The notes: generated by a model not told the origin, from the sequence alone. DNA of 63,665 bases, filler included, from Hausera hauseri (GCA_046269625.1; 10 parts of 10 records of this genome joined end to end with filler, not necessarily neighbours in it), one strand, 5' to 3'. Positions 118 to 37,500 are shown, numbered from the whole stretch's first letter. Made by a program: numbers and translations.

Positions 118-1641
118 TCAGTCATCGTCATCAACATCCACTGAAGTGGGGAGAGGGGCAATGAAAGCTGAAGGTGGCGGGTGTGCACTGAGAGGGAGGT
201 CGAACCAATTAACTGGGGGCGGAATGAAATTTGCAAGGTGTGGGTGAATCTGGGCAGCCGCTGGTGTCCAGATAGTGTCCAATTTGTTAAGACGAGATAA
301 GTGACGGAATAAGTCAAAAACATCATTGAGCATATTGGTGTAATTCAAAGTTCCAATAGAACGAATACGATTTATGCGGCATGCATCACGATAAGAAACA
401 AAACCCCATGGGCCTCTTTGTAATTCGATACTTCCCAGTATATCGTCATAACTTTGAGCAAAGCAGGCTAAGAACTGAGCAACGTCAAAAGTAACTAAGA
501 CACGTCCATAAGTGCATCGAGCCACATGCAACATGACTAGGTTGAAATCTGGAGCCGAGTCGAGCATTTGGAGGGAAATGCCATGAATGTGAGATTCGAC
601 ATTAGACAAACGCACTCGTGGGTTAATGAGTGTGGTATAACGCTGTATTAAGGAGTCGTTCTGAATTTCCCCCAGGCTTACTCCGATACATATTTTAATA
701 GCTCCAGAAAGAGCGGTTGTAAATCCCACGAGGAGGAGATCAGAATCTACTGGTTGTCTAGCTAACCTCATGAAAGAAGAAGAGTTCAATTCAGGAGGTG
801 GCAAGGGTAGTAAAGAACAATCCATCGTACGAGTTGTACCATTAGAGGACTGGGACCAATAATCGAGCCAAGGTGACGGAATAGTGTGTTCAATTTCAAT
901 CATAATAGTTGTGGGTACCGTGACAATTTGTATTTTCGGACCCATGTTATTCCATACCGATCGGGAAAAACGGATTGAGGCATACTGAGGAATAGGAATA
1001 TCAAATTCATCTGTTTGACGTGACCACTGAAACTTGAGTTGACCTTCAGCCACAGACAAAAGAGTATCATGAAGGGTATATTGTAAGTCCGGTTGTTCAA
1101 TCAAATCCTCAACAAAGGTTCGAAGTGGTAGTGTACCTTTGTGTCGAAAGCGGTTGATTATAATTGATCTATTTTGGAGGCTATTACCCTTTAACCAATT
1201 AGGTAATGAGAACGGTGTTTTGTAGCACACGGTAGGGTGGACTAGAGAATTGGCCTTAATGGATTTATATGCATTGTTAGAGCGGGCTATTTCTTGAATT
1301 TCGGATGGAGATTGCATATTAGCGATTTGTATCGGCAACCCGGGAAGACTGCGTAGGTGAAGACTCTGGGCTGTATTATCCACAAAACGTAAGGAGAATT
1401 CATCTGGCTGCGATGTTTCAATGTTAGATGATTGTGCTGGTCTGCCATCGGCGGGTATCTCGTCACCCAGGCCGTATAAGAAATTCACGGCATTGGGTGT
1501 TGCTGTATTGCCCGATGAGGGGATGACTGTTTTTCGCCCACGTAACCAAGTTAAATAAGTTGGCTCGGCCACTGAAGGTAAGGAAGAATAAGAAAAATTC
1601 GCCACAGCCATGCAGCTCGCAGCTGTAGCCAAAAGTAACCG
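118..1641 (-). CDS. ORF4, accessory protein with a degenerate DnaQ/DEDDh exonuclease-like domain; in frame with pol after one TGA
   Basis: 504+ codon ORF. The segment RYTTLINP...IHGISLQMLDSAPDF...GRVLV resembles the DnaQ-family F.TLINP...IHGIT.EML..AP.F...VLVAHN motif. Confidence 0.65.
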   Translation of the reverse strand, partial: RLLLATAASCMAVANFSYSSLPSVAEPTYLTWLRGRKTVIPSSGNTATPNAVNFLYGLGDEIPADGRPAQSSNIETSQPDEFSLRFVDNTAQSLHLRSLPGLPIQIANMQSPSEIQEIARSNNAYKSIKANSLVHPTVCYKTPFSLPNWLKGNSLQNRSIIINRFRHKGTLPLRTFVEDLIEQPDLQYTLHDTLLSVAEGQLKFQWSRQTDEFDIPIPQYASIRFSRSVWNNMGPKIQIVTVPTTIMIEIEHTIPSPWLDYWSQSSNGTTRTMDCSLLPLPPPELNSSSFMRLARQPVDSDLLLVGFTTALSGAIKICIGVSLGEIQNDSLIQRYTTLINPRVRLSNVESHIHGISLQMLDSAPDFNLVMLHVARCTYGRVLVTFDVAQFLACFAQSYDDILGSIELQRGPWGFVSYRDACRINRIRSIGTLNYTNMLNDVFDLFRHLSRLNKLDTIWTPAAAQIHPHLANFIPPPVNWFDLPLSAHPPPSAFIAPLPTSVDVDDDD

Positions 1642-4600
1642 TCATAATATTACCTCATAGTTTAGGTCATAAGTTTGACATCTGGGGTTTCGCATATGAG
1701 TTTTAGTATTCTTACTGTTGATTGTAAGATTTTCATACATACTTCCAATTTCTCTATCTGTATTTGGGGGGTGTTTTTGGAGCCAAAGAATAAGGACAGA
1801 AACTAAGACGACCGATCCTATAACGACTAGAAGAGCAATAATCAAGGAGTATACAACAAAACTGTCAACAGACATTTCCGTTACGGTTTCAATTGAAGGG
1901 GCCATACTTATAACATGGCGAAAACCATGAAGGTTCATTGAATCAGTCAATGTCTTGCACGGTAAGGGAGTCGTTCGTTGAGAAACGGAAGGATACTGTT
2001 TTTGTTCACTTTTGAATACAGGCGTTGCGCGAATTTGAAAATATCGTTGGGTAGTCGACAGGGCAGAGGTTATGATGTTATCACGTAATGACATTAGCAC
2101 AGGAAATTGCAGGATGGCGTTAAGTAACAAAAAATTGTTAAAACCAGGTACAGTAAAGCTTAGTTTCACTTTATCCTTACTGATATTTGATACCATAGTA
2201 CTATAATTGGTTTTAATAAGGATGTTATTGGAGGTGAGGTGCTTTACGTTAATATTAGCTGGAGTAAGGCATAATATTTTCAATGCTCTGTGATGTGACC
2301 CTATTACTACTGTGGTCAGATCCAACTTCTGTCTTATAGCAATCCAAGGGATTGTATAAATTTCCTTTAATTTATTGTCGAATGTTGTTGCTACTCCTTC
2401 CCACAAGTACTCTCCGGATATTTTTAACGGCTTGGCTGGAGCTTGGATCCATTGGAAAGTCAAATATCGATGTGCATAACTTACGTGGCAATTTAGTTGC
2501 AACCATACAGCTTCACTGTAATTAAATTCTTGGTGATCTATTCTAAGGGGTTCAAGGGCCTCCCCAAGCCTACTAATTGAGAGTGGGCAAATTTGTCCTA
2601 TTGAAACAGCCCGTAATTGTAGCCCCCTATGTTTTTCACACCAGAATAGTAAAACTGGGATTTCCCTGTGATATATAAATGTCGGTGCCTTCAGCAATTC
2701 GGAGTTCCATCTACTGATTTGTGTACTATTAACCCATTCTTCAATTACTTGCTGTAAGGCTTCTTCGTCCGAATGTACATAGTAGCAGTGGCCTCCTGGT
2801 GACTTAAACATACAATGGAATCGTTGGTAGCGGTGACGGCCTTGTACCAAAAAGATATTGACCTTAATGTTGTGAAGGAAGTCCGACACAAAGGTATATA
2901 AACGTAATTCATTCCTTTGCTTTGTCCATCCCCATTGAATTTTTATTCCGTGTGATAAAGATAATAAGCATAGCAATAAACAAAACATGTACAATATAGA
3001 AAACTTCGGCACGCCTAGATTTGTTGGAGCTAACTCGTTCCTGGTCTGGTTAATGCCAACATCCTGAGGTATTACCGTAACTAATTGTGTAGGGGCCTTT
3101 TTGCACCGATCTGCTGCTACAGTTATGATTTCGTCTCGCTTCCCGATTTTTTTTCGTATAAAAATGTTCGTTTCTGTAACATTTTCCACTTTATAGGGAC
3201 CTTTCCACGGGCGAGCTAATTTTGGTGACTTACCTTTTTTTACTGCAGGTTCCAAAAGCATCACGAAATCGCCTTGTTTGATTGAGTGAGGACGTGCCTT
3301 TTTATCGTAATTTCCCTTATATGTTTTCTGATAATCAAGTGTTAACGATTGTGCTAAGGCCCATGCTTTCGTCAATCGTTCCTTCAAATAGTTTACATAG
3401 TTCGGTTCATGTTTTGCCAGGGTCTCATCTGGAATTATTTCTAAATCCTTCGGCAGAAGTGGGTCACGCCCATACATAAGGAAGAATGGTGGTTGCTGTG
3501 TTGCCGAGTGTGGCGCAGTTCGCAAGGCGAACATACAAGCTGGGATGAACAAATCCCAGTCATCTTGTCTATCGTCCGTTACCGTAGCCAACATTGATAA
3601 TAATGTGCCATTTAATTTCTCGACCATACCATCACAGCAAGGGTGATAAGCAGCTGTTTTAAGCTTATATATAGAGAACAATCGGCAAACCTCTTGGAAC
3701 ATTTTATTTATAAATTCCGTTCCTTGATCTGTTAATATTTTCCTGGGAGCACCGTACCTGAACACTATTTCCTCGACAAATAATGCTGCAACAGTAAAAG
3801 CTGATTTATCAGCCATTGGAAATGCCTCTGGGAATCTAGTCAAGTAATCTACAAACACCAATATGTATTGGTTCCCGCTCTGCGTCTTCGGTAACGGTCC
3901 GATTATATCCATCGCTGAAAATTCCATGGGACTCGCTGGTGGTGGTATCGGATGCAACGGAGGTTTACATCGGTATCCCCTATTTCGTCTGGTCGCACAG
4001 ATCTTACAGCTTGCACACCATTGTTCGACATCCTTTTGAATTGTGCGCCAGTAATATTTTCGTTTAATTCTACCCAATGTCTTCTTATATGCAGGATGCC
4101 CTGCTAATAATCCGTCATGTTCTTGTTGCATAATGTCGTGTCGCCTAGATTCTGGTATCACTACCAACTGCCGATCATTGTACCAATAGCGTAATAATTC
4201 AGATGCAATAAGGTATTTTGCACCTTGACTTACCAAGTGTTGTATTAGTTCTTTATGAGAGGTATTAATTTTTCGTGTTCGCACAAATTCTCTGATTACT
4301 CTCAATTCCGCATCTTGCTCTTGTTGGTTAATCAGCATCTGAATTTCATCATCTGGGATATGTGCCGTAGTTATCTGGAAGGTCATTAATTGTGATATGT
4401 GTTTTGATTCACATCCTTCCTCCAAGCATTCTAGCTCTCGTTTAGTAGCGGGTCTACGTGACAACCCGTCCGCATTTTTATTATTTCTACCAGGCCGATA
4501 AAACACAGTTAAATTGTATGCTTGCAATTTTAGTTGCCACCGTTTTAGTCTTGAGTACGGATCTTTTACTGTTGAAAACTCTAACGGTGCATGATCTGTG

Positions 4601-6909
4601 AAGACTTTCACTTCATGACCCCATACGTAATATCGGAATTTTTCAATTGCAAAGACAATAGCCAACATTTCCTTTTCTATTACAGCATATTTTTGTTCAG
4701 TTTCCGACAAGGTTCTGCTTGCATACGCAATTACGTATTCCCATTTTGAGTCTGGTGGCATTTGTGATAACACAGCTCCCAATCCAGTGTTACTTGCGTC
4801 TGTAAATATAATGAATGGCAAGGAAAAGTCTGGATATCTGAGTATTGGTGCTGAAGACAACAGTTTCTTTAGTGTGTCAAATGATTCCTGGGTTTCTATC
4901 GTCCATAGGAATTTAGTTCCTTCATGCGTTAACGCAAATAATGGAGCTGCTATTGTACTAAAGTTTGGAACATGTTTTCTATAATAACCACACGTACCCA
5001 AAAACGCGCGTAGCTCTGTTATATTCTTCGGTATAGGCCATGCTGTGATGGCGGACACTTTTTCTGGGTTTACTTCTATGCCCTCAGCTGAAACAATGTG
5101 TCCAAGAAAAACAACTTTCAACATTGCAAATACACATTTCTTAAGTTTCAATTTGAATCCCCAAATTTCTAGTAAATCAAGAATTCTTTCGATATCATCT
5201 AGATGTTCGTCCAAGGTTCGTGAAAATATCACGATATCATCAATATAAACCATTGCGTGCGTACAGTCTAGCAGCATTGCCTCTAAGGCTTCTTGAAACG
5301 TTGAAGGTGCGTTACATAATCCAAAGGGCATTACATTGAACTCATATTGGCCTTTACCGGCGGAAAATGCTGTCTTATATTTATCCTCCTCAGCCAGTGG
5401 TACTTGCCAATACCCACTTTGCATGTCCATCGTTGTAAAATATTTGGAGCCTCGTAGTTTATCAAATATATCTTCCTGTAGTGGGAGTGGATATGAGTTC
5501 TTTACTGTTTGACTATTTAACTGTTGGAAATCCACACAAATTCTGGCTCCCCCGTCCTTTTTTGCTGCTACTACAATTGGCGATAGCCATGAAGAATTAC
5601 TTTTTCTGATGACATCATTTTCTAACATTTGTTGTAATTGACGGTTAACTTCTTCTTGCAGTGCATGTGGGATGCGATATGGTCGTTGCTTAATTGGCCT
5701 TTCATTTAATAAAGGGATGTGATGGACTACGCGGTCGGTTTTACCCAGGTCTGCATCTGATTTAGCAAAGGCCCTTAGGTGCCTTTTAAGAACACACAAC
5801 AGACGTATTTTATCTTTTCCAATTAAATCGGTTTTTATACTGTCCGCCTCTTCGAACGTGCTGATGCATTCTTCGGGCTGAATGATGTGCGATATTGCAC
5901 ATAACTGTCCAATAGTTGTATTTTGTCTGAGTACAACCGCTTGTCTATCGGTATTTACTACTCGAACTGGCAAATAGCCATCTTTAATGGGACTAATACT
6001 GCACGCTGCTTTTATTCCAAGCCTCCTATTTGAGGTTACATCAGGTTCGAATAGCATAGTTCCATTTACCATGTTTGGTGCATAACCTTGTATAATGTGT
6101 TCACTTGTGGGTTCCAATATGATTCCTTCTGGTACAATAACTACTTCCTTCCGGAATTTTACCGCTGGTATCGCGAGCTGTCCTGTAGCTAGGTTCAGAT
6201 ATCGTCCTGTACATTTACGTTGTAAATCAAGTCCCACAATTACATCCTCAACTAACTTATCGAATACTTTGAATGTGTGCTTCAGGCGTTTATTATAAAG
6301 TATTATATAAGTCGTCCAATAACCTACTGGCATTAATTTGTCGCCCCATCCTGATACAGTTGCTCGGTCCTCTTTCTTGGGGGGGGGCAGTTCAGATCTG
6401 TATCTCTCTGGTATACTCGATAATAACACTATTGAATCGTCACAACCAGTATCCACTAGAGCCACAACGTCCCAATCTTCGTGAATGGTTACTAAAGTAT
6501 ATGGCCTTTTCGTGTCCATCTTACTTTTACTAGATCGAAATGCACAGAAGTTACTAAAACTTGGTACTCTTACGTTCATGTTTTCGATTTCTGTATCCGA
6601 ATTTTCCTCATCTTCTGGCTTTATTTCGGTGATAGGTAATCTACTTGGTGTGACGATTTTTATGCCTTTCAACTGTTGTCGTAACTCTCGGTATTTAATA
6701 TATTTAGCTTTGCTACCGCTATATAACGCATCTAATTGATCATCTTTTAACTTCTCCAGACCATCTTTATCTGTTACGGGTAACTTGGGCAACGGTCTTC
6801 CCTGATTCCTAGGTTTGATTTGGTGCAGTCGAGTACAACTATTAATTTTATTGTCTCGTTCCTCACTCCTAGAATTCTTTATCCACCCCCATACATTTTT
6901 TTGGGTATT
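1642..6909 (-). CDS. pol: Pol polyprotein (aspartic protease, RT, RNase H, integrase) with in-frame C-terminal type I membrane protein extension
   Basis: ALVDTG; YIDD; TDAS...EKEMLA...TDH; HHCC; MDIIGP/TDQG/VEKLN; WKGPY. Then the signal-like FSILYMFCLLLCLLSLSHG and TM FVVYSLIIALLVVIGSVVLVSVLILWL. The frame is open from 6909. Confidence 0.93.
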   Translation of the reverse strand, partial: NTQKNVWGWIKNSRSEERDNKINSCTRLHQIKPRNQGRPLPKLPVTDKDGLEKLKDDQLDALYSGSKAKYIKYRELRQQLKGIKIVTPSRLPITEIKPEDEENSDTEIENMNVRVPSFSNFCAFRSSKSKMDTKRPYTLVTIHEDWDVVALVDTGCDDSIVLLSSIPERYRSELPPPKKEDRATVSGWGDKLMPVGYWTTYIILYNKRLKHTFKVFDKLVEDVIVGLDLQRKCTGRYLNLATGQLAIPAVKFRKEVVIVPEGIILEPTSEHIIQGYAPNMVNGTMLFEPDVTSNRRLGIKAACSISPIKDGYLPVRVVNTDRQAVVLRQNTTIGQLCAISHIIQPEECISTFEEADSIKTDLIGKDKIRLLCVLKRHLRAFAKSDADLGKTDRVVHHIPLLNERPIKQRPYRIPHALQEEVNRQLQQMLENDVIRKSNSSWLSPIVVAAKKDGGARICVDFQQLNSQTVKNSYPLPLQEDIFDKLRGSKYFTTMDMQSGYWQVPLAEEDKYKTAFSAGKGQYEFNVMPFGLCNAPSTFQEALEAMLLDCTHAMVYIDDIVIFSRTLDEHLDDIERILDLLEIWGFKLKLKKCVFAMLKVVFLGHIVSAEGIEVNPEKVSAITAWPIPKNITELRAFLGTCGYYRKHVPNFSTIAAPLFALTHEGTKFLWTIETQESFDTLKKLLSSAPILRYPDFSLPFIIFTDASNTGLGAVLSQMPPDSKWEYVIAYASRTLSETEQKYAVIEKEMLAIVFAIEKFRYYVWGHEVKVFTDHAPLEFSTVKDPYSRLKRWQLKLQAYNLTVFYRPGRNNKNADGLSRRPATKRELECLEEGCESKHISQLMTFQITTAHIPDDEIQMLINQQEQDAELRVIREFVRTRKINTSHKELIQHLVSQGAKYLIASELLRYWYNDRQLVVIPESRRHDIMQQEHDGLLAGHPAYKKTLGRIKRKYYWRTIQKDVEQWCASCKICATRRNRGYRCKPPLHPIPPPASPMEFSAMDIIGPLPKTQSGNQYILVFVDYLTRFPEAFPMADKSAFTVAALFVEEIVFRYGAPRKILTDQGTEFINKMFQEVCRLFSIYKLKTAAYHPCCDGMVEKLNGTLLSMLATVTDDRQDDWDLFIPACMFALRTAPHSATQQPPFFLMYGRDPLLPKDLEIIPDETLAKHEPNYVNYLKERLTKAWALAQSLTLDYQKTYKGNYDKKARPHSIKQGDFVMLLEPAVKKGKSPKLARPWKGPYKVENVTETNIFIRKKIGKRDEIITVAADRCKKAPTQLVTVIPQDVGINQTRNELAPTNLGVPKFSILYMFCLLLCLLSLSHGIKIQWGWTKQRNELRLYTFVSDFLHNIKVNIFLVQGRHRYQRFHCMFKSPGGHCYYVHSDEEALQQVIEEWVNSTQISRWNSELLKAPTFIYHREIPVLLFWCEKHRGLQLRAVSIGQICPLSISRLGEALEPLRIDHQEFNYSEAVWLQLNCHVSYAHRYLTFQWIQAPAKPLKISGEYLWEGVATTFDNKLKEIYTIPWIAIRQKLDLTTVVIGSHHRALKILCLTPANINVKHLTSNNILIKTNYSTMVSNISKDKVKLSFTVPGFNNFLLLNAILQFPVLMSLRDNIITSALSTTQRYFQIRATPVFKSEQKQYPSVSQRTTPLPCKTLTDSMNLHGFRHVISMAPSIETVTEMSVDSFVVYSLIIALLVVIGSVVLVSVLILWLQKHPPNTDREIGSMYENLTINSKNTKTHMRNPRCQTYDLNYEVIL

Positions 6910-9530
6910 TTACTACTTTTTATTTTTCGTTGCTTTGACCATTTGGATCCATAAACGCTCACTCTATCTGCTCCTCCACCACCATAATCTTCGTCTCGCT
7001 TTTCTCTCTCCCTCATCCACTGGGCCATAAATGCATGTTGTAAGCATCTGGCTAACGGCGGACAAAGTGCTGTTAGTATTTTCTTGGAACAACCAAAAAG
7101 TTGGAAATTTATAAATCCATTAGTTATTTGTGCGATTATCGTTCGTAGAATTTGCACTATGAAGTAAATAGCTAGAAATCCAGATGACACTTGTCCAAAC
7201 GTCATCATTCCCCCCCATAACTTTTTGAATATCGTCTTAGCTGCCTTGGTAAAATGATCCGGGCTTAAGATGTTTTCCCAGTTTGTTTTTCCATTTCCTG
7301 TATCAGTAACTTTCTGTGTATATGACACTATAAGCCTTTGTAATTGTTTCGGAAACAATAAGTATCTTCTTAATTTTTCCATACTAGCCTCATCGTACAA
7401 ACCTCCTTGAAAAAAATTAACATTATTGTCGAACTTCAATTGTTGTTTTAATGCCAGCATTGTCAGTTTCTTGGGAGTTATTATTTTCGTTCTTGACGGC
7501 ATCGTAACCCAGTGATCATGTCCAATCTTAAACAGTGGTGCAACGTTTCTTATGCACTCCTTTAATACCGTTGGATCTTCGGTTGGTATCAACATTACTC
7601 TCGTTATTGGTGCTACGTATCTTATGTGCCCATTATATTTTACGGCTATTTCATTGGTACATATCGTAGTATCTACCACTGGTACGTCAACTTCCCGACA
7701 CTGAAAGGTTACTAACCCTTCTCCAGTAGTTCTACCGAATACTCCTCGTTGTTTTGTTGGTAGGATTGGGGTATCTATCGAAGGGTTATGGGCTGCTACT
7801 GTGACTCGTAATGCCAATAGATCCTGTGTTATCAAGCAGTCGTTTTGGAGCATTTCCTTGTATATTTTATACTGATTATTGAGCATATAGTGGAACAGAT
7901 AATCCATTTTACCGTTGTAATATACCATTGGTTTAATCTCAGTTGGGTGCACTTGTTTTTGCGCATCTACTACTTCTGTTGTCTTAAGGTATATATCTTC
8001 GACGTTAGTAGAATATACCTCTGTTTTACATTTGATCACTATTTGTTTTCTTATCAATCGTATTGCATCATCGACTGTTGACATTAGGACTGCCGGTGTC
8101 TCAATCTCTGTTAACCGTTGTACGTCCGTATCCTCAGTGTGCGTCGGTGTTGGCTTTGAAAATCTAACACCTTTTGTAATATTGAACGTTACAGCTTTAA
8201 TGAAGGCTAGATTACAGGTTATAACTTCCACGTTCCAGGTAATTATCGAATCTGTGGTAAAACAATACCCATTACCATATACACAGTCCATCCGAATCAT
8301 TAGTTTCAATGTGTCAGCGTCAAACGTAATTTCTTTATCGGTAACTGTCCATGCATACAGATTTTGTACCACTATCCGTGATACTTCATCCACAGTTTGT
8401 CCTGTACATGTCCCGTCTTTACCTACCATACCTCCTTCATTTATTGTTAGGTATTTAATACCATTAACTATTGTTGTTATTTCTACCTTGTCGTTTACCT
8501 TCAACTTACCCAGTCTCACAGCCTCTTTGCAATCGTCCGGCAGCACTCTCTGGGGCTCATCTGGTGACGCTATTAATAGGTTCGTTGAGTGAGTATGGGC
8601 TTTGCCACAATGCCATTTTTTTGTTTGTTTCGTCAATTTACATTCCAACGCTCTTACTCGAAAAAATTTATTTTCCTGATATATATAATATTTTGTTGAT
8701 GGTTCTGTTATCAGTTTGTCCGGTTCGGCATCAGGGCATTTCTCTAGATCAACTAAGGAGTACGTGGCTCCTACTTCTGGTTTATCGCAATCAAATGCCT
8801 TGATCCCCTGCCCTTGAGGTAGACGCCATAAAACTAACATAATTAACAAGACACTCATCATTCCTTCCAAATTCAATCGTGGCGCATTATCCAATATTTC
8901 CTCAAAACCTTTTATTATTTGTAGAAAACCCTTTTCCATGTTATAGGGATTTTTAACGGGCCGACCTTGCTTTTGCTGGTATCCTCGTTCTGCTGGTTGT
9001 GGGATATGATTAAGGTCCAACAATTTGTCCCACCCACCAAATCGCTGTGCTCCCCCGGATAAATTATTCTTTGCAATCTCCATCGCAATCTCGTTATTAT
9101 TTTCAAAGTCCTCTTGCTTTTCACTTGACATCTGTACTCTCATTGCTAAATATACGAGGATTGCGATCATACGGTCCTTCGACACTGCTCCATCCTGCAT
9201 CCATTTTTGAATTATCTCACTATCCTTTAACGGATCGATTGAACTTGGTAATTCTTCCTTCGTTATTGCTTTTTCCATTTGCTGCAATACTTGTTTAAGG
9301 TGCCCTTCAATACCATGATCACCTTCTTTTTCCTCCTCTTGTGACCAAGGTTTGTCATCATCCTTGTATAAGATTTTATAAATTTTATAAAAAGTTTGTT
9401 TAATTTGTCTACTCTCCGGATATAAATTATTCGTCTCGGTCGTACGCAAAGCTCGGGTTAGTGTGTCAACACTAATTTGTTCTATTAGATTTTTTTTGGT
9501 CTCCCTCTTGGTTTCTTTCTTATCTGGGCT
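6879..9530 (-). CDS. env: Envelope glycoprotein, chuvirus/gB-like (class III-type), preceded by a ~200 aa helical leader and internal signal sequence
   Basis: Hydrophobic MMSVLLIMLVLW is followed by GIKAFDC...TYSLVDLEKC, a Cys-rich ectodomain (DGTC, QNDC, FQC, TICTNEI), GGLY, and the TM region GQVSSGFLAIYFIVQILRTII. The frame is open from 9530. Confidence 0.8.
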   Translation of the reverse strand, partial: SPDKKETKRETKKNLIEQISVDTLTRALRTTETNNLYPESRQIKQTFYKIYKILYKDDDKPWSQEEEKEGDHGIEGHLKQVLQQMEKAITKEELPSSIDPLKDSEIIQKWMQDGAVSKDRMIAILVYLAMRVQMSSEKQEDFENNNEIAMEIAKNNLSGGAQRFGGWDKLLDLNHIPQPAERGYQQKQGRPVKNPYNMEKGFLQIIKGFEEILDNAPRLNLEGMMSVLLIMLVLWRLPQGQGIKAFDCDKPEVGATYSLVDLEKCPDAEPDKLITEPSTKYYIYQENKFFRVRALECKLTKQTKKWHCGKAHTHSTNLLIASPDEPQRVLPDDCKEAVRLGKLKVNDKVEITTIVNGIKYLTINEGGMVGKDGTCTGQTVDEVSRIVVQNLYAWTVTDKEITFDADTLKLMIRMDCVYGNGYCFTTDSIITWNVEVITCNLAFIKAVTFNITKGVRFSKPTPTHTEDTDVQRLTEIETPAVLMSTVDDAIRLIRKQIVIKCKTEVYSTNVEDIYLKTTEVVDAQKQVHPTEIKPMVYYNGKMDYLFHYMLNNQYKIYKEMLQNDCLITQDLLALRVTVAAHNPSIDTPILPTKQRGVFGRTTGEGLVTFQCREVDVPVVDTTICTNEIAVKYNGHIRYVAPITRVMLIPTEDPTVLKECIRNVAPLFKIGHDHWVTMPSRTKIITPKKLTMLALKQQLKFDNNVNFFQGGLYDEASMEKLRRYLLFPKQLQRLIVSYTQKVTDTGNGKTNWENILSPDHFTKAAKTIFKKLWGGMMTFGQVSSGFLAIYFIVQILRTIIAQITNGFINFQLFGCSKKILTALCPPLARCLQHAFMAQWMREREKRDEDYGGGGADRVSVYGSKWSKQRKIKSSKIPKKMYGGG

Positions 9531-11983
9531 TCAGTATTTCGTTGCATCGTTCCTTTGGGCAGTACTTCGTCACCTAGTTCTGGTACTTCTGCAAATACCC
9601 ATAACGGTTCCGGTATCTCCTTTAATTGATTAATCGAATTATCTGAACCTGACTTGAGGGGCCGGATGTATTCTGTTGCACCCAATACCTTATTTATTTG
9701 TCGTTCCAATTTGTGTTGATCATCGTCCCTTTTCCTTTGGGATTCCTCAAGATATATTTCAACAATTTCGTTAGGATCCATTCCAGACATAACTCCTAAT
9801 TCCGTCCATTTTATATCTAAGTCATTTACTTGACGCCCCATGAACCTAATAGTAATAACAATATCCTCGTCATTACAACGCCACTGATTTTCAGGTAACA
9901 ATATCTTTAATATCTTCTGTATCGGTGCCTCAGGGTCTATCATAGCTTGTGTTTCAGTGTATACCTTTCCGTCAATTATCCTAAATTGAAGCAAAATGTC
10001 ACCTTCCTCTTTTTGAGGCTTAAAGCCTTCCTTTTGAGCGAATATTTGCAATATCAACCGTGCCATATCTCTTCGCGGAGCTCCATCTGCCGCTTGGGCT
10101 ATGAGATATTTTCTAACTTTGATAATCCGTGTTTTATGCTCGGTTATCCACTCACGGAGTTCATACATTTGATCCATTATTGTTGGTGTTACATCATTGG
10201 TTGGGTCGTTCTCTATTTTCTCGAGTAATGCCCTGAACTGTTCTTCGTGGTAGTCGATTTCATTTGCATTATCTGGCTCTTCAGCAGTTGCTGGAGGCGT
10301 TGTTACTTCATAATCTTCTAGTATCATTATAGGTATATCTTTATCTTTTTCACCTTCCTCCCTTGTTTTGGTTAGTACGTCTGTATTGTTATCGTTTAGC
10401 GGTGCTATCTGATTAAGGTGTAGCGATTTCAATCTTTCAAACTGGGTTCGCATATCATCAAGTTCCAATTTGTGTTGTTTCATTTGAAAAATCATTTCTT
10501 CCCGTGTTAAAGACATATCTTCTGTCTCAGGGGATACAGAGATTATACCTTCCTCCCGGAGACCTTGTGAACTATTAGTATGTGCTATCTGATTAGTCGC
10601 ATCCATTTCTTCATGCATCTGATAGCAATTCGTGTCATCCATTGGATTAAATGATGCACTTGCATCATACACAGAGTGCATCAGTGCCATGCTAGTCGGA
10701 TTAATATTGCCATACCTTATCGGGCACTTCTTTGCCAGATGTCCTGCTTGGCCACAATTGAAACAGTTCTTAGGTTGCGATACACCAAAATTTTGTTGCG
10801 TTGCAGGCTGTATCAAGCCTTGTTGTTGCTGTATGGGACATGTTTTTGCTGTATGTCCCCTTTGGCCACAAGCGTAGCATTGCTTCGGAGATTGTGCATG
10901 TGGCGGAGTGGTAAACGGCATTTGTGCCATATATGGGCATGACTTCGCCAGGTGTCCAAAGTTTTTACAATTATGGCACTGTATAAGCCCTTTTGCATTG
11001 ATATTATCGTGTTCGAGTATGGTTGTTTGGTTTCTGTTACCTGTGGATCGTAATGAATACGGCATAGTTTTGGCAGAACTTCCCATTGGCGCGACCTGCA
11101 ATCGATTGACTGCAGCACCGGTTGACATAGCATTTGATCCTGTTGGTTGTCGTACATTGCCGCCGTCTGTTGGGGACGTTTGTCGTTGTATTGGTGGTTG
11201 ATGTGGACGCACTCCGAGTCCCATATTCCATTGAGGCCTAGTGTATACCATTGGATGCCTCGGTGGTCGCAACCATTGTTGTTGCGGCCATCCTTTTCCA
11301 AGGTCCACGTGTTTGTTCCATGTGTTACGACCTGTTGGTTGGTTAATATTAAATGTTGATGACTGAGTAATTTGCGCATGAGGTATAGACGGTGACGTAT
11401 CTTGATGTAATAAACCTCTCTGTAATATTTGTGACATTTTAACATCGACATTTTCATGAGCTATAGCCTTTTTAACTAATTCACTAAATGTCGTGGCCTC
11501 ACTCTCGATTAAATGTCGCTGTACTTTGGGGTTTCGTAAACCCGTTATGAAGCAATCCACAAGAATAGGCTCTGTTTCAAAAACCTTCTTGTCGTCGGCT
11601 TTTTTATCTCTATTCTCGTTTTCCAGCGCGACTTTATATCGTTTTGCTAAAGCTTGTAAGGCTAGAGCGAACATATTCACGGATTCTCCCGCATGCTGCA
11701 CGCGTGATCGTAAATGTCTTAATCGGGCATTGGACGAAGGGTCCGGATCGACACATTTTCTCAATCTTTCAACTATTTCCTTCCATGGTTTATCCGCCTT
11801 GTCTATCTGAAGGTATGCCTGCAGTGCCACACCTTCCAAGTACCCTACCAATTTCTTTACTTTCTCTTTATCATCCCAGTCGACGCTATCCGCCTGTGCT
11901 TCATACATAGTAATGAAGTCGTCAAAGGCGGCCGGCTCACCGGCATATCTATTAATATTTAAGCCTGCATATAATTGCGCCAT
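9485..11983 (-). CDS. gag: Gag with capsid-like N-terminus, 3 CCHC zinc knuckles, SUMO/ubiquitin-like domain and C-terminal AT-hook
   Basis: Retrotransposon-gag N-terminus (WDDKEKVKKLVGYLEGVAL; QHAGESVNMFALAL). Knuckles CHNCKNFGHLAKSC, CYACGQRGHTAKTC and CFNCGQAGHLAKKC. Ends RKKPRGRPKK. Confidence 0.9.
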   Translation of the reverse strand: MAQLYAGLNINRYAGEPAAFDDFITMYEAQADSVDWDDKEKVKKLVGYLEGVALQAYLQIDKADKPWKEIVERLRKCVDPDPSSNARLRHLRSRVQHAGESVNMFALALQALAKRYKVALENENRDKKADDKKVFETEPILVDCFITGLRNPKVQRHLIESEATTFSELVKKAIAHENVDVKMSQILQRGLLHQDTSPSIPHAQITQSSTFNINQPTGRNTWNKHVDLGKGWPQQQWLRPPRHPMVYTRPQWNMGLGVRPHQPPIQRQTSPTDGGNVRQPTGSNAMSTGAAVNRLQVAPMGSSAKTMPYSLRSTGNRNQTTILEHDNINAKGLIQCHNCKNFGHLAKSCPYMAQMPFTTPPHAQSPKQCYACGQRGHTAKTCPIQQQQGLIQPATQQNFGVSQPKNCFNCGQAGHLAKKCPIRYGNINPTSMALMHSVYDASASFNPMDDTNCYQMHEEMDATNQIAHTNSSQGLREEGIISVSPETEDMSLTREEMIFQMKQHKLELDDMRTQFERLKSLHLNQIAPLNDNNTDVLTKTREEGEKDKDIPIMILEDYEVTTPPATAEEPDNANEIDYHEEQFRALLEKIENDPTNDVTPTIMDQMYELREWITEHKTRIIKVRKYLIAQAADGAPRRDMARLILQIFAQKEGFKPQKEEGDILLQFRIIDGKVYTETQAMIDPEAPIQKILKILLPENQWRCNDEDIVITIRFMGRQVNDLDIKWTELGVMSGMDPNEIVEIYLEESQRKRDDDQHKLERQINKVLGATEYIRPLKSGSDNSINQLKEIPEPLWVFAEVPELGDEVLPKGTMQRNTEAQIRKKPRGRPKKI

Positions 11984-12121: not shown

Positions 12122-12125
12122 GATT

Positions 12126-12680
12126 TGTTGTGGCCCCTTGCCTAATAAAAGCTCTCTGTATTTTACTTGATTATCTATTTATTTATTACTTTGGAGACTT
12201 CCCCAATTAAATGCCCGTCTACCCTACTGTTTATGGTGCCCTCAAGATCACTGGGCTTGTCCCAAAGATCGTGGTTACTTTTAACCCTAACCTCAGTCCC
12301 TCTTTAGTTTTACCTCAGTAGCCACTGAGCTAACTCTCAAAAGCTACACTCGTTAGTTAAAGTAATGGGTCGCAGTAATTATACTCAAATTAAAAAAAAT
12401 AGGTAGTATGGCGGCTACAAACAAACAAAAAAAACAAAAAGAACATACTTTATTACAAGCCAAACCGTTCAAATCATTTTGTCAATAAAGTTTTTTTTGT
12501 CAGTCCCCAGATGCAGTTTATATAATACTGACATCGTGGGATTAAATTACAAAAATCAGCCAATGATTCAACAAATAATGACAGAGTGTCACAAAAATTG
12601 TTACACAAAATCAATCATACACCCGTATTACTACGGCTAATTGTTACACCAGTTGCCGAAAAAGAATACAATTTGTTACA
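12126..12680 (-). repeat. Putative 5' LTR
   Basis: The minus strand ends ...CCACAACA 4 nt before the PBS. It contains TATATAAA (~12516-12523) upstream of AATAAA (~12448-12453). Candidate start TGTAACAA at 12680, with alternatives near 12605 and 12648. No second LTR is available to confirm the boundaries. Confidence 0.55.
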
Positions 12681-25976: not shown

Positions 25977-26961
25977 ATGGCCAACCGAACTGTTCGAGAT
26001 GCTCATACAATTCATGGAAAAAATCCCCAAAATTTAATTGAAAAGGTTATTAGAACTCGGATATATGATTCTAGATATTGGAAAGAAGAATGTTTAGCAC
26101 TTACATGTAAGTTGTAAGTTTTTTGTTATTTTTTATTTAAATTTTGCTTTAGCTGAACTCTTAGTTGATAAAGCTTGTGAATTAAAATATATTGGCGGTG
26201 TTTTTGGTGGAACCAATACTCCAACTCCATTCTTGTGTTTATTGCAAAAGCTACTTCAGATCCAACCAGATAAAGATATTGCAATCGAATTTATCAAACG
26301 GAATGAGTTTAAATATTGTCGAGCATTAGGAGTCATGTATTTGCGTATCACCGGAAATGCTGTAGTAATTTACAAATATTTGGAAACGTTATATAATGAC
26401 TATTCCAAGTTGAAGAGGCAAGATCAAGACGAAAAGTTCACGATTACCCACATGGATGAATTTATCGACGAATTGTTGAGAGAAGATCGAGTCTGCAGTA
26501 TTGTTTTGCCGAGATTACCAAAACGAGATGTTCTCGAAGGGTCTAATGAACTCGAGCCAAGAGTTTCAATACTCGACGAAGATTTGCAAGATCTAATGTT
26601 ACAAGTCGTTGAAGAAGAAGAAGAAAAAGAGGAAATGAGAAAACGATCAGACAAAATTACGGCTAAGGAAGAAGTCAGTCGACGAAAACGAAGCCGTTCA
26701 AGAAGTCGGGATAGACGAAAATCAAGAAGTCGTTCACGAAGCCGAGGGAGATCTCGTTCACGTGGTAGATCACGATAGAGATCGAAAGACCGTGCTCGTA
26801 GACGTTCGCCGAGACGTGATCATAAAGATCGTAAACATGATAAACGGGAGCGTTCTCGCGATAGATCAAGAGAACGAAGATACGACAGAGAATCGTCACA
26901 AGATCGCAATAAAAGAAAAAGTGATCGAAAAGACTATGATAAACATAAGGACAGATATTAA
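25977..26961 (+). CDS. PRP38: Pre-mRNA splicing factor PRP38 (PRPF38A-like); exons 25977-26106 and 26153-26778, or to 26961 if the TAG is bypassed
   Basis: MANRTVRDAHTIHGKNPQNLIEKVIRTRIYDSRYWKEEC; PTPFLCLLQKLLQIQP; HMDEFIDELL; RS tail; 46-nt GT-AG intron. Confidence 0.93.
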
Positions 26962-31744: not shown

Positions 31745-34489
31745 ATGGCGTGTACGAAGACAGTTGCAGACCTAAAGTCTTACCTTCAATCATATCCTGC
31801 AGAATACCCGATCAAGCAAGGGTACATTGCGAGATTACTTTGTGAGGGTAGAAGCAATGAAGAAATTATGCAGCAGTTAAAATATATTGCCGTCGGCAAA
31901 GAGATAGATAAATGTATAAACGATAAATTGGTACGGGCATTTCTGATTCGTTTTGATAGAAAATTGAAACAAAAGAAAGCAAACATCACTTTTAACTGGT
32001 TACAGCTTACAAATTTATTTACTAAAAACTATGATGTACCATTTAAAAAATGTACTGGTTTTCTTTCTTCACAGCTGTTATTAAATCGCACAAAACAAAT
32101 TAAATCCACAACAACTGTATATAAATTGAAAAGGCATTGTTTAAGTTGTATATCAAAAATAAGAACACAGATAAACTTAGCAAAAGATAATGCATATTTA
32201 CGTAAAAAAATAAAAGAAATGAAGAGAAACACCAGTGCATGTAGTAATGAATGCAGATGTGAGAAAGAAATTCTTAAAAAAACAACTAAAAGTGTAGATA
32301 TATTGAAACGCAAATACGTAAATGAAAAAGTAAACAGGACACAATTGATAATATACAAGCATTTGTGGTGTAACGAGAAAGAAGCGAATCGGCTTAAAGA
32401 ACAGTTAGAGAAGTGTAAAACAGACATTTGCGTTACGCAAAAGGAACTACAGGAAGTCAGACAGTTTAATGAGAAAATAAAAATTAATATTAAAGAATTA
32501 AGGCTGAAAGCGAAAAAAAGAAGTTGATGAAATGAAAAAGCAAAATGCGAAAGATATCGCAGCAGCTGTGAAAGAAACAGATTCACAGATAAGTTTTTTA
32601 GAAAATGAAACACAACAAATACGAGAGAAGCTTGATGAAATGACTGAATGTAGTGAAGCAGTGAAAGAAGATTGCAAGACGTATGGATGCGACGTCAGGA
32701 AATGTGTGTACAAATGTCTTGTAAGTCAAGTCAGTGTGGATAAATGCTCCGAAATTATTAAATACGTAGGTGAGTGTTTGTTTCATAGGAAAGTTTCTTG
32801 CTTACCCGTAAAATCTGTCGTTGCGAATATGTCCTACGAGCTGGGTGTTTTGTCAGATATGCTGGTGGGCTACCAGCTGCACAAGATGCAGGGTGTTGCA
32901 ACGTTAGCATGGGACGCTACAAACTTTCAAGGCTCCCATGTTAATGAAGTGCATATAGAAACAGGCTCTGGCAGATTTGTAGTAAACATTGCAGTACTTC
33001 CTGGCGGTACTACTGCCGACTACTTCCACCAGATATGTGAAGCTCTCCTGGCTGTAATCCGCACTTACAGTGATGCATTTAATCAGGCGGAAACAGATGT
33101 CCGAAACATAGTTTTCGGCAAAATAAGAAGCTGCATGACTGACAGAGCAAGAGTTAATCACTCTGTAGTGCAGTTACTCCAGGAAGAGTTTGACGTGAAT
33201 GTGGTGGAGCTAAACTGCCTAGTACACCCGTTAGATGGTCTGGCTTGTGCTGCTAGGAGTATACTCATGACACTTGACACCAAGTGGAGAGTCCAATGCC
33301 AAAAAATACCTGGTACCGAATGTGTTGCAGCTACCCTTATTTACTGCATTTCCAAGCTGAGATACAAGAAAGGAGCGGGCGATCCTGCTGGGTTTAGGAT
33401 ATTTTTAAGACAAAAAAATCTCAGACCAGGCCTAATCCTCAGATATGTTGGAAACAGGATTAATGTCCTGTTTCGCATGGGGGACATCGTATTCCTTCAC
33501 CGAGATCAGAGAATTTGATGTGAATCGACGCCAAAACATATATGGCACTGAACCGAATGTGTTGCAGCTACCCTTATTTACTTTTTTACTTTCATTTCCA
33601 AGCTGAGGTACAAGAAAGGAACAGGTGACCCTACTGGGTTTACTGCATTTTAAGAGAAAAAATCTTAGACCCGGTTGGAAACAGGATTAATGTCCTGTTT
33701 CGCATGGGGGCCATCGTGTTCCTTCACCGAGACAAGTTGCTAGAATATATGAAAACATGTATTCGCACGCAACTGAAGGAGCTCATAATAGAACAGTTGC
33801 AGAACGATCTGGTTATGATCCAGCTCCGAGCTCTTGGGCTTTTTGCAAAAGTTCTGACAGAGCCATGGATGGGTGTGTTCTATGGAAATGCAGCGAAAAG
33901 ATTCACTCTTCAGCTGAACACATACATCCAGACAGGCGTTGACAATCTGAGGAAACTCAGCCACGAGCCAGACCACATATTACACTGCACGGAGGATGTA
34001 TTTGGGCAGCCTTTAAAACAATCGGATGATGTTGCGCGACTGCAAAATGTGCAGCGGAAATATAAGCAACATTTCACATACGCTGTTGCCGAGTTAGCAT
34101 CTTCATTTGAAGATGTGCTTAACAGACAACTGGCGCGTCATCTCAGTGGTGATCTGGCTGTTCCATCCGATGATATGCTGGCGAACACTGCATCAGCTCC
34201 CGCCAACAACATGTATGCGGAGAGGGTGTTAGGCATGACAGATGCTCTTTGGCGACGAGCTCCAAACGCCACCTGTGGCTTCATTAACGGCAAGGTCAAA
34301 GGTAACCTAAATAAGGTAATCGACTGGTTGGAGACATTTTCTGACAATGAGCAAAGAAAACTGGTTGCCTTTGCCACTAAACGCGCGCGTGAAGTGCGCA
34401 AAGCTAATGAAGCCAAAACTCATCTACTCCATAATGAGATGGCTAGGCATCAGAAACAGCATGTGCAGAAGATGGAAAAAACCAGAAAG
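31745..34489 (+). mobile_element. DDE transposase with CxxH motif (hAT/P/MULE/Kolobok-type clade), disrupted by a frameshift and an internal duplication
   Basis: LAWDAT (D1), MTDRA (D2), NCLVHPLD (CxxH), NNMYAERVLG (E). N-terminal coiled coil. Frameshift at the A-run near 32513-32519. Confidence 0.7.
33315..33731 (+). repeat. Diverged tandem duplication (~190 bp) within the transposase
   Basis: 33315-33504 and 33552-33731 share accgaatgtgttgcagctacccttatttac...gttggaaacaggattaatgtcctgtttcgcatgggg. Confidence 0.85.
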
Positions 34490-34589: not shown

Positions 34590-37500
34590 CCCTCTCATGG
34601 GAATTATTGGAGAAACCAGTTCTGGGTTGGCATATATAAAGGACAATTTTGTCCTCATGATTTCGGTATCTAATTTACAGTCATTCATTATCATTTTGTG
34701 ATATAATTCCATTATTCCAACTTGTCCTTTGTAGTAGAATTAATTGTCTTTGTTTTTCAAATAATCCTCAATCCGGACATCCTGCGTTTCTAGCTGGTAA
34801 GTCTTCACATTTATTTCCGTTTCTGCGACGAAAAATGCCTCATAATTAGTGGCGAACATCACTACATCGCAACGAAAGATCATTTCTTTTTTAATAAATT
34901 TCAGTCCATGCTGATCCAAGATTAATATAGTAGATATAAGGTGTTCCGATACGTCCTCGCGTGTGCTTGAGTTGGTATCGGATTTATCTACATATCGCTT
35001 TCCGGTAGTTTCATTAAACCTTAATTCCTTGATTTTGATAAAATTACAAAAAAACTTCTTCCGGAAGGCGGTTCCCAGATTATAACCGAACTTCTAAAAG
35101 CACAGGTTCCGTCTTCTAAATAATATTTTTGATTTTCAGTGTAACTTAGTGACGCTATGGAACATTACTCTTGTGATCGCATCTCCAATTCATAGAAATC
35201 CACCACTACCACATTTGCTTGTAATCCTTTTCCGGTATCATATTCTGCGCCGTAACAATGTACACTGTACATATCTAACCTTCCGGCTACTACCTTGTAC
35301 GCCCTGATTATCTTTCCCGGTTGTATTTCTAATTCCATACTATCCCATTGTACTCTTCCGGTCTCCTTAGCCTGTTTGCAGTGCTGGCGTTCTAAGTTCA
35401 TAGGGATAATCGGAGTTGTCGGTTTAATTATTGAGGAATGCCCGCGTACTAATATACAATGGAAAATACTATGAGATCGTCTCAACATACATTCCATTCC
35501 ATCTAACTATATCAGTTCTTGTTGTTGGTACAGGAAATAATTTTTTTCTATTGTTTCCAACTTGTGCGGTCTAGCATTTTCGCACACGTCTAGATCCATT
35601 GGGGAATATCTCTGTTCTAGTTTAAACTTATCGCAGTCGTAGACGGTAACAGCGCTTATATATTTTATTAGCATCATCAAAGTGAGTAGGCTGATTAACC
35701 AATTTGATTCATTTTTCCGATAACCAACATCCTCTGTTGTTAAAATACGTAACATATCATCGAGTTTATTGCTGATCCGTCTGTCGTCTTCCTTGTCAAA
35801 CAGTTTTGACCAATTTACTTCGCAGGGCAATATTTCTGCTGCTTTTCGTGCTAATCTTATAACTCTATTGATTTCATTCTCTAGATTAGGGTTTATTTTG
35901 ACAGCTAAGTATAGTAATACTTTTCTCAATTCCTAGTTGGTGTTTTCTACCATGACCTTTTCGATTACCGATTCATCGGCTAAGTTACTTTTCGATAACT
36001 TAAAACGTGAACTTCGCATCATTCTGGCTTCATCGAATATTATCTTTTCTTTATCATATAATACATCACCTCGAAGGTTCGAATAATTTACAATTCGTAT
36101 TAAATTCTTTATTAACTCATTTAATTCCTCATTGTTTGTACTGAGAGTCGGAATCGACAACGGCCTCAGTTCTCTAATCAATTCTCCATTATAGGCCACC
36201 TCTTCTCGCGTTTTCTTGGGCCTACCAATTGGGCGTTTCGGCCTTGGGCCCTTAGCGGTTAGGTCACTCAGTAGTACTAAATTTATATCGTATTGTTCCT
36301 TGTTTTCACCAGTTTGTAAATATTCGAAATACATTGCAGCATCTCGGACTCCCATAATCTGTCCCACGCATTGCTATGACCTTGCATTACGTGTGGCTTC
36401 CTCTTTTGTCTGCTTATTAGCTATGGTTGCTACTATTCGACTTGTTTCGTCGGGAATAATCCCGACATCTATTAATTGTTCTAGGTCGTCGAGTATTCTA
36501 CCTCTAAAGTAAAATCTATAATTTAACTCGTTTCTTCCGCCGTTATTTAATAACCAGTCTCTTACGTCCCTCAGATAGGAATATGTAGTTAATTCACATT
36601 CTTTGTCATCCATCCACTCGTACGATATCATTACTTTCATTGTTACCTGAGGTTTAGCCCTCAAGATTTTAGCGTATTCTCTTATCAAAAGTTTCTGCAC
36701 CATGCTATAAATCGTATTCTTACTAGATAATTTAGTTAATGTCGGAATAAGTTGTCTTAACTTATTTTCGGTAATGTTTCCGTTAATTAGTTCGATTAAA
36801 TCCCTTTCATTTAGCGCTGAATCCAGGAACATCTCCACGTTGAATCTCCCACTCTGCGGACGTGTCTCTACTTCATTTAGTTGTACCGGAGTCGTGGGTT
36901 TTTCGGCAATCATCGCATCTAAATAAGCATCCCATTCCGGTTTGTTTTCAACGTCTAGAACTCTATAGTCCGCTAAGGCTATATTTGTTCTATGTACATT
37001 TCCTCGGATTTCTTCCTATCTTGGTTGTATTTCCTTCATCTGTGTAGTTCGGAATCCTACTGCGTTTCCACAAGCATACTGAATCATTTTCAGTAATTTG
37101 CCTAATTCATTAGAATTGATAAGTCCTTTTTGGTGATAATCTGTTAGTTCAACAATTACATCTCTTTGCCATATTTGTACGAATTCTCGCTTGTTTTTGA
37201 TTTCTGATTCGGTAAAAGCATATTTGTTCCGGTAGATTCCGAGCTCTTTTACTAATTTATCTAACCTTGTTGCTTATTGTTGGGTTTTAATACAGGTTTC
37301 TTCAACCTGTCTTATTTTAGGCATCAATTGTTTCATCTTATCATCATTAATCTTTGCCATTTCTACTAGTAGGAAGGCAAATTCATACATCTCATTTATA
37401 ATTTTTGAGTCAGGATCTATTGCGTCAAGCAATTTCTTTACAAACTTAGATTCCTGAAAACTAAGATGTTGGTCATCTTTTATCTTTTTTAACTCGGAAT

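Follow-up and report, generated by a model that had tools for sequence, protein, structure and literature searches.

A probable Gag–Env fusion across an A8 frame break in a gag-env-pol Ty3/gypsy element

In the window analysed here—63,665 nucleotides of contigs strung together by N44-TTAATTAATTAA-N44 spacers, so that neighbours across a spacer carry no physical linkage—we find a Ty3/gypsy (Metaviridae) LTR retrotransposon of approximately 12.5 kb, in gag-env-pol order on the minus strand, which very probably makes its Env as a fusion to Gag by one route or another. At roughly even chances that route is a single polyprotein initiated at Gag, the frame break at a run of eight adenines (‘A8’) being a run length that either slipped, in what would then be a defective copy, or was mis-called in sequencing or assembly, and not a programmed switch. 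Our estimate for the fusion is high because of the way in which the competing readings share the probability: about as much falls to a lesion or mis-call of run length as to all the others together, a good part of the remainder to a -1 ribosomal shift, little to an Env made independently of Gag, and least to polymerase slippage.

Read in its coding direction, the element presents Gag, a ubiquitin-like region (a weak match), an AT-hook, the first frame break, a Bcl-2-like domain, a class III Env, the second frame break and Pol. Its termini and reading frames are as follows:

12125..12540, minus strand: probable 5' LTR, with limits as we infer them from a run X1 joint of 12540 to 1 at depth 107
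12121-12110, minus strand: primer-binding site, tRNA-Arg class (1 mismatch in 12 against the class listed in supplementary file 1 of PMC13524379)
11983-9485, minus strand: Gag ORF, 832 aa, with a capsid-like N-terminus, three CCHC knuckles (zf-CCHC, E 4.9e-14), a ubiquitin-like region and an AT-hook end
6879..9530, minus strand: Env-frame ORF, 883 codons, -1 to gag, first ATG at 9278 (ORF scan)
1642..6909, minus strand: Pol ORF, 1755 codons, with protease, reverse transcriptase (RT), RNase H and integrase (Pfam) and a C-terminal membrane-protein module (hydropathy)
118..1641, minus strand: ORF4, 507 codons, in the Pol frame behind one TGA (ORF scan)

The three CCHC knuckles of the Gag nucleocapsid, beginning at 10978, 10879 and 10765, and the protease–RT–RNase H–integrase order of the third ORF place the element within Ty3/gypsy; a class III fusogen set between two hydrophobic segments, in gag-env-pol order, is the arrangement of the GAG-ENV-POL errantiviruses with a gB-type Env. 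Besides the two breaks, neither a stop nor a shift interrupts the coding sequence from gag to the end of pol. In run X1, depth passes from about 100 inside the element to about 20 beyond 12587, and the joint of 12540 to 1 is consistent with a repeated LTR, the element's 3' end lying at the window edge. A depth some five times that of the flank (contig depth not being equivalent to copy number), taken with the one substitution in about 6.6 kb among the four long main contigs listed for run X1, suggests that the family is likely young. Copies of 80-95% identity are present in run X1 as well. One run X1 contig, at depth 9.6, skips 8416-10117 (1.7 kb, gag/env junction included) and probably represents an internally deleted copy. 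Elsewhere in the window, an ORF at 26098-26778 is what we take to be a PRP38-like gene, one of the host-like genes that indicate an AT-rich animal.

The end of Gag and the junction with the env frame comprise five features:

9737..9994, minus strand: ubiquitin/SUMO-like region, approximate limits, a weak match (profile of five relatives, Gag aa 704-749, iE 0.004)
9488..9514, minus strand: AT-hook-like motif, its last codons formed by the A run (PF02178, E 0.82, below cut-off)
9490..9497, minus strand: A8 run with the in-register heptamer A_AAA_AAA (9497-9491), at the gag/env frame break
9485..9487, minus strand: gag stop codon, TAA
9475-9458, minus strand: perfect 7-bp hairpin, -5.4 kcal/mol (folding)

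An earlier note on this DNA had described this run and its heptamer, a gag 3' end reading CCA AAA AAA ATC TAA, an env frame at -1 to gag, open from 9530 and lacking an early ATG, and a perfect hairpin 15 nt past the heptamer; all are present on the minus strand, the first ATG of the env frame being codon 85 (Met85). A Pfam search of the window sequence alone gave no ubiquitin match, and the relative P0016 matches Pfam ubiquitin (E 0.03) at the position equivalent to the ubiquitin-like region. The GRP(K/R) motif of the AT-hook-like end is common to P0005, P0006, P0008, P0016, the related locus L002 and a relic at 36 kb.

Were the A8 run real, a low-rate -1 shift on A_AAA_AAA, with help from the basic AT-hook peptide, the neighbouring stop codon or a hairpin bound by protein, would yield an excess of Gag and little Gag-Bcl2-Env(-Pol); a derived state in an otherwise single-frame family, and one that we regard as a real possibility, if somewhat less likely than a lesion or mis-call of run length. 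The heptamer conforms to X_XXY_YYZ and lies in register with the gag frame, exactly at the end of Gag; of three such heptamers in gag, that at the junction alone has a long -1 frame. A perfect 7-bp stem 5-20 nt downstream is encountered at 0.8% of positions, the element is young, multi-copy and otherwise lesion-free, and the stop between Pol and ORF4 likewise stands in a readthrough-like context—all points that speak for such a shift. Compensatory frameshifting at runs is known, and spacers of 11-14 nt are described at cardiovirus and arterivirus sites, where infection or a viral protein is required (PMC5009743). The same source, however, gives 5-9 nt as the usual spacer from heptamer to stimulator, and A_AAA_AAA lies outside its list of the heptamers most shifty on mammalian ribosomes (PMC5009743); furthermore, ribosomes as a rule decode a pair of successive AAA codons without sliding (PMC4363877), which we count against a programmed shift. 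At the junction no stable stem-loop or pseudoknot is located 5-9 nt downstream of the heptamer, the folding analysis giving no simple pseudoknot downstream of it, and the hairpin, weak and at a distance, is no better than background: 17.5% of 35-nt windows fold at least as stably, and folding at 50-70 nt around the junction reveals no excess stability. A run of 7 or more is present in 2.7% of 46-nt windows of the element; no A run of 9 occurs in the window element, and none of 8 in the ORFs of L001 or L002, the two related loci considered below, a scarcity of longer runs that speaks against a lesion or mis-call. The tandem TAA TAG after gag, or the short distance to the stop, was dropped as a signal, a shifted-frame stop falling within one codon at 15% of codons by chance.

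The fusion appears likely because relatives are unshifted at the junction: six of the 14 long proteins, L002, the 36-kb relic, and L001 from its ubiquitin-like (‘Ubl’) region onward. An exhaustive protein search returned 870 matches at E up to 0.001, with the best 150 of the 870 listed; the 14 long retroelement-type relatives comprise 13 among these 150 matches and P0151. In six of the 14 a CCHC knuckle precedes Env within one protein, and in 11 a protease or RT is found downstream of it; five (P0003, P0004, P0005, P0008 and P0151) start roughly 130-200 aa before Env, without Gag. Env identity to the relatives is 23-34%, with the exception of one 91% fragment (P0001). An alignment-based scan of metagenome contigs identified at least two related loci, L001 and L002, among 593 candidates; the equivalent scan of viral contigs found none, as did single-protein scans of viral, metagenome and genome contigs. 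The Gag ORF is absent from a collection of 15 billion proteins, as is the Env ORF taken from Met85; word-based protein searches gave no matches (weak negatives), and a search of the ESM Atlas gave no usable match.

Across these relatives the two window ORFs correspond to a single chain. In L002 a single ORF of 999 codons runs through Gag, Ubl, AT-hook and Bcl-2-like domain, matching the window Gag as well as the leader of the window Env, and one continuous ORF of P0016 matches both window ORFs; from the AT-hook to the BH2 motif there are 156 codons in the window, as against 160 for P0016 and 161 for L002. The window Env also falls inside a clade of retroelement-borne proteins (support 98), in a quick tree with a long branch meeting P0011 that was used solely for this placement. 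The continuous relatives, the spacing and the Env clade lead us to believe that the two ORFs are likely halves of one ancestral polypeptide. L001, which starts after Gag, runs without a shift as one 5'-open ORF of 3426 codons from Ubl via Env to beyond integrase. In P0012, residues ~110-300, located where others have the Bcl-2-like domain, presumably form an RNase H-fold exonuclease-like domain, judging by motif; the same residues have no Pfam match. L002 has an in-frame TGA (3058-3060) between its Bcl-2-like domain and the Env signal segment, with the frame unchanged and a context that is not readthrough-like, and this is probably a nonsense lesion.

The earlier note had also pointed to a relative at 36.2 kb in which the equivalent GRPKK runs in frame into the leader. 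This is correct, the copy being a dead relic, with stops, on another contig:

34593..37015, minus strand: dead relative (the 36-kb relic) with Ubl-like, AT-hook, Bcl-2-like and Env-start parts in one frame with stops (translation)

The 617 codons examined contain three internal stops and are closed by a fourth; the relic is unshifted and keeps to one frame. At the DNA level the gag/env heptamer site is absent from both L002 and the relic, distant relatives as they are, and this tells against a -1 shift at the junction.

Below the break, the env frame opens into a leader followed by Env with its predicted membrane segments:

9015..9338, minus strand: Bcl-2-like domain, the ‘env leader’, approximate limits (profiles, fold match)
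8876-8805, minus strand: predicted internal signal/anchor ahead of the Env ectodomain (hydropathy; relatives have a corresponding segment)
7002..8852, minus strand: class III-type viral fusion glycoprotein (PF24664, Monjiviricetes-type; Pfam E 4.9e-68)
7181-7125, minus strand: predicted transmembrane (TM) segment of Env (hydropathy)

By profile and by predicted fold, this leader is Bcl-2-like. When the window ORF is combined with four or with six relatives, the resulting profiles match Bcl-xL and Bcl-2 at E of about 1e-4, and the best fold match of the leader model (a moderate model) is MCL-1, with a probability of 0.89 and an E of 0.37. Folded from seven sequences, the core of the leader reaches a pLDDT of 70-90 in 68 residues, the single sequence giving a pLDDT of 39; the window leader sequence alone has no Bcl-2 match in Pfam.

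The position of this domain bears on the question of where translation of Env begins. Met85 lies inside the Bcl-2-like match, and the 71 codons before it stay open in no more than 9 of 2000 shuffles; together these favour entry from Gag. An Env (with or without its Bcl-2-like part) produced independently of Gag, from a spliced RNA or from a start of its own at Met85 or at Met224/225 by the signal segment, is accordingly hard to place, the relatives being continuous from Gag as well, though a BLASTP comparison of the stretch before Met85 with L002 gave no alignment. Subgenomic splicing of env is the rule in Drosophila errantiviruses, and this, the plausible signal peptide that Met224/225 opens, the calling of the P0001 fragment from that same point, and four weak acceptor-like AG sites between 9700 and 8780 lend the idea some substance; on balance we think an independent Env unlikely.

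The earlier note's description contained nothing of a second break, between env and pol, which has the same -1 sign and likewise falls on an A run:

6902-6896, minus strand: A7 run at the env/pol frame break (-1), without a canonical in-register heptamer (sequence; length variants in run X1)

No X_XXY_YYZ is in register here, so that a break with the same signature as that between gag and env exists without the heptamer, which counts against a -1 ribosomal shift at A8. The env/pol run has another length in three run X1 contigs (depth 60.5 of 225.4), and the main run X1 contig terminates at it; the main contigs of run X1 also disagree on how long the coding runs C9 and G7 are. With lengths differing at env/pol, C9 and G7, three of the eight coding runs that reach 7 or more are unstable in these data. 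Both breaks are situated at domain boundaries, and the six other runs, inside Env or Pol, are unbroken, which speaks against a lesion or mis-call. A separate ORF overlap on an A7 run, offset by +1, is present at 32513-32519 (plus strand), within a transposase-like region that contains a local duplication.

At 9490-9497, by comparison, no length variant appears among the run X1 rows listed, down to depth 11—a point in favour of the -1 shift—and run X1 agrees with the window at three A runs lying in frame (3147-54, 3235-41 and 8616-22; records 1 and 5, 0 gaps). From these two observations A8 may be the true majority state across some five near-identical copies. That said, the agreement is not independent, since the assembly may itself derive from run X1, and assembled contigs such as those of run X1 lose rare variants.

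The mixed run lengths at env/pol would also be expected if the A runs caused slippage of RNA polymerase II or of the reverse transcriptase that the element encodes, a mixed pool of transcripts or copies then giving both Gag alone and the fusion. Such slippage needs no heptamer and would therefore cover both junctions, and an 8-A run in human APC is subject to replicational and transcriptional slippage (PMC5009743). It would, however, also strike the four A or U runs of 7-8 that lie in frame within Env and Pol, and of all the explanations considered we hold it to be the least probable.

The earlier note had proposed that Env is made as a Gag–Env fusion, through a -1 ribosomal frameshift or because the A8 run is in truth an A9. 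The fusion gains from the continuous ORFs of L002 and P0016, their matching spacing, the 71 open codons and the precedent of the planarian Burro elements; the programmed shift loses ground to the weak and distant stem, the missing site in distant DNA relatives and the env/pol break that lacks a canonical heptamer.

On our preferred reading, that of one Gag-initiated polyprotein, translation would begin at the gag ATG, and the Gag, Ubl, AT-hook and Bcl-2-like parts would remain cytoplasmic, as Burro-type relatives and hydropathy suggest. The hydrophobic segment at the start of Env would act as an internal signal/anchor, with the fusion ectodomain threaded into the ER, and the TM segment would bring the chain back to the cytoplasm, where Pol would follow; signal peptidase and the element's own protease may then release the parts by putative cleavages. 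More tentatively, one may picture a recoded lineage that arose from an ancestral single polyprotein, in which a -1 shift where Gag ends, possibly on a protein-assisted long-spacer hairpin, sets the ratio of Gag to Env, accompanied by recoding at env/pol and readthrough at pol/ORF4.

Two observations concern the 3' part of the element. Pol ends at a TGA followed by CGG and a stem of -28.9 kcal/mol (1644-1540, minus strand; z -2.44, 2 of 200 shuffles), behind which the 507 codons of ORF4 continue in the same frame, with an ATG of their own 10 codons in; we take this context to resemble the readthrough type of alphaviruses. The stop is covered by a run X3 piece and the main run X1 contig, with no difference among the rows listed. 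After integrase, at ~3020-1790 (minus strand; Pol aa 1298-1707), there is a second signal-like segment, then ~370 aa and a TM segment—a module that could possibly be a second surface protein. P0002 shares its hydropathy pattern and L001 appears to; the module has no family match.

The closest precedent for the layout is found in the planarian Burro elements (GYPSM1), where env sits in frame between a Bcl-2-like domain and the protease, after Gag and Ubl, in a single ORF (PMC6431247). Our element shares with these, as described in that source, the same order of a three-CCHC Gag, a Ubl/SUMO-like region (putative in our element), a Bcl-2-like domain, a mononegavirus-like Env and protease–RT–RNase H–integrase, the Bcl-2-like domain again standing directly before Env. 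It differs in its length (~12.5 kb, against the 25-30 kb given for Burro), in having no Pfam match to BIR, ankyrin, MATH or dUTPase domains, and in a frame that is broken twice (-1) in this assembly, whereas that of Burro is described as one ORF. It would work much as a compact Burro does, but because size, cargo and single-ORF organisation all depart from Burro, we file the element as a GAG-ENV-POL errantivirus type instead.

GAG-ENV-POL errantiviruses with an HSV/gB-type Env are described from Nematoda, Bryozoa and Platyhelminthes by Chary and Hayashi (PMC13524379), and the likeness extends, as far as that account goes, to gene order, a class III-type Env between two hydrophobic segments, a tRNA-Arg-type primer-binding site and, probably, several near-identical copies. 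The words ‘frameshift’, ‘fused’ and ‘splic’ are absent from its main text, which thus does not treat the decoding of the junction; its sequence files and figure supplements may show the junction frames, and in the literature searched we found no frameshift-controlled Gag–Env fusion in such elements. With the classical -1 cassettes of retroviruses and gypsy elements, as set out in PMC5009743, the window element has in common an X_XXY_YYZ in register just before the gag stop, but the downstream frame here is that of Bcl-2-like domain and Env in place of Pol. The stimulator, too, is 15 nt off and about half as stable as a local example whose heptamer lies at 40514-40508. That example is itself a separate, decayed gypsy element (40514-40450, minus strand) with a gag/pol A_AAA_AAC, an immediate stop and a stem of -11.4 kcal/mol ~7 nt downstream. 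Placing Env before Pol in a metavirus is a likeness to nematode endogenous retroviruses, which Sacco et al. reportedly described in 2022 as having one continuous gag-env-pro-pol ORF.

By these comparisons the element has a known architecture, the putative chain of capsid, Bcl-2-like domain and class III fusogen, followed by Pol, being a layout already described in such systems, and the Gag–Env fusion is well supported by the sequences of its relatives. If the A8 break is merely a lesion or mis-call of run length, this would be a further compact element of the Burro kind; should the shift be real, a single-polyprotein enveloped retrotransposon would have gained, through gag/env frameshifting, control over its ratio of Gag to Env.
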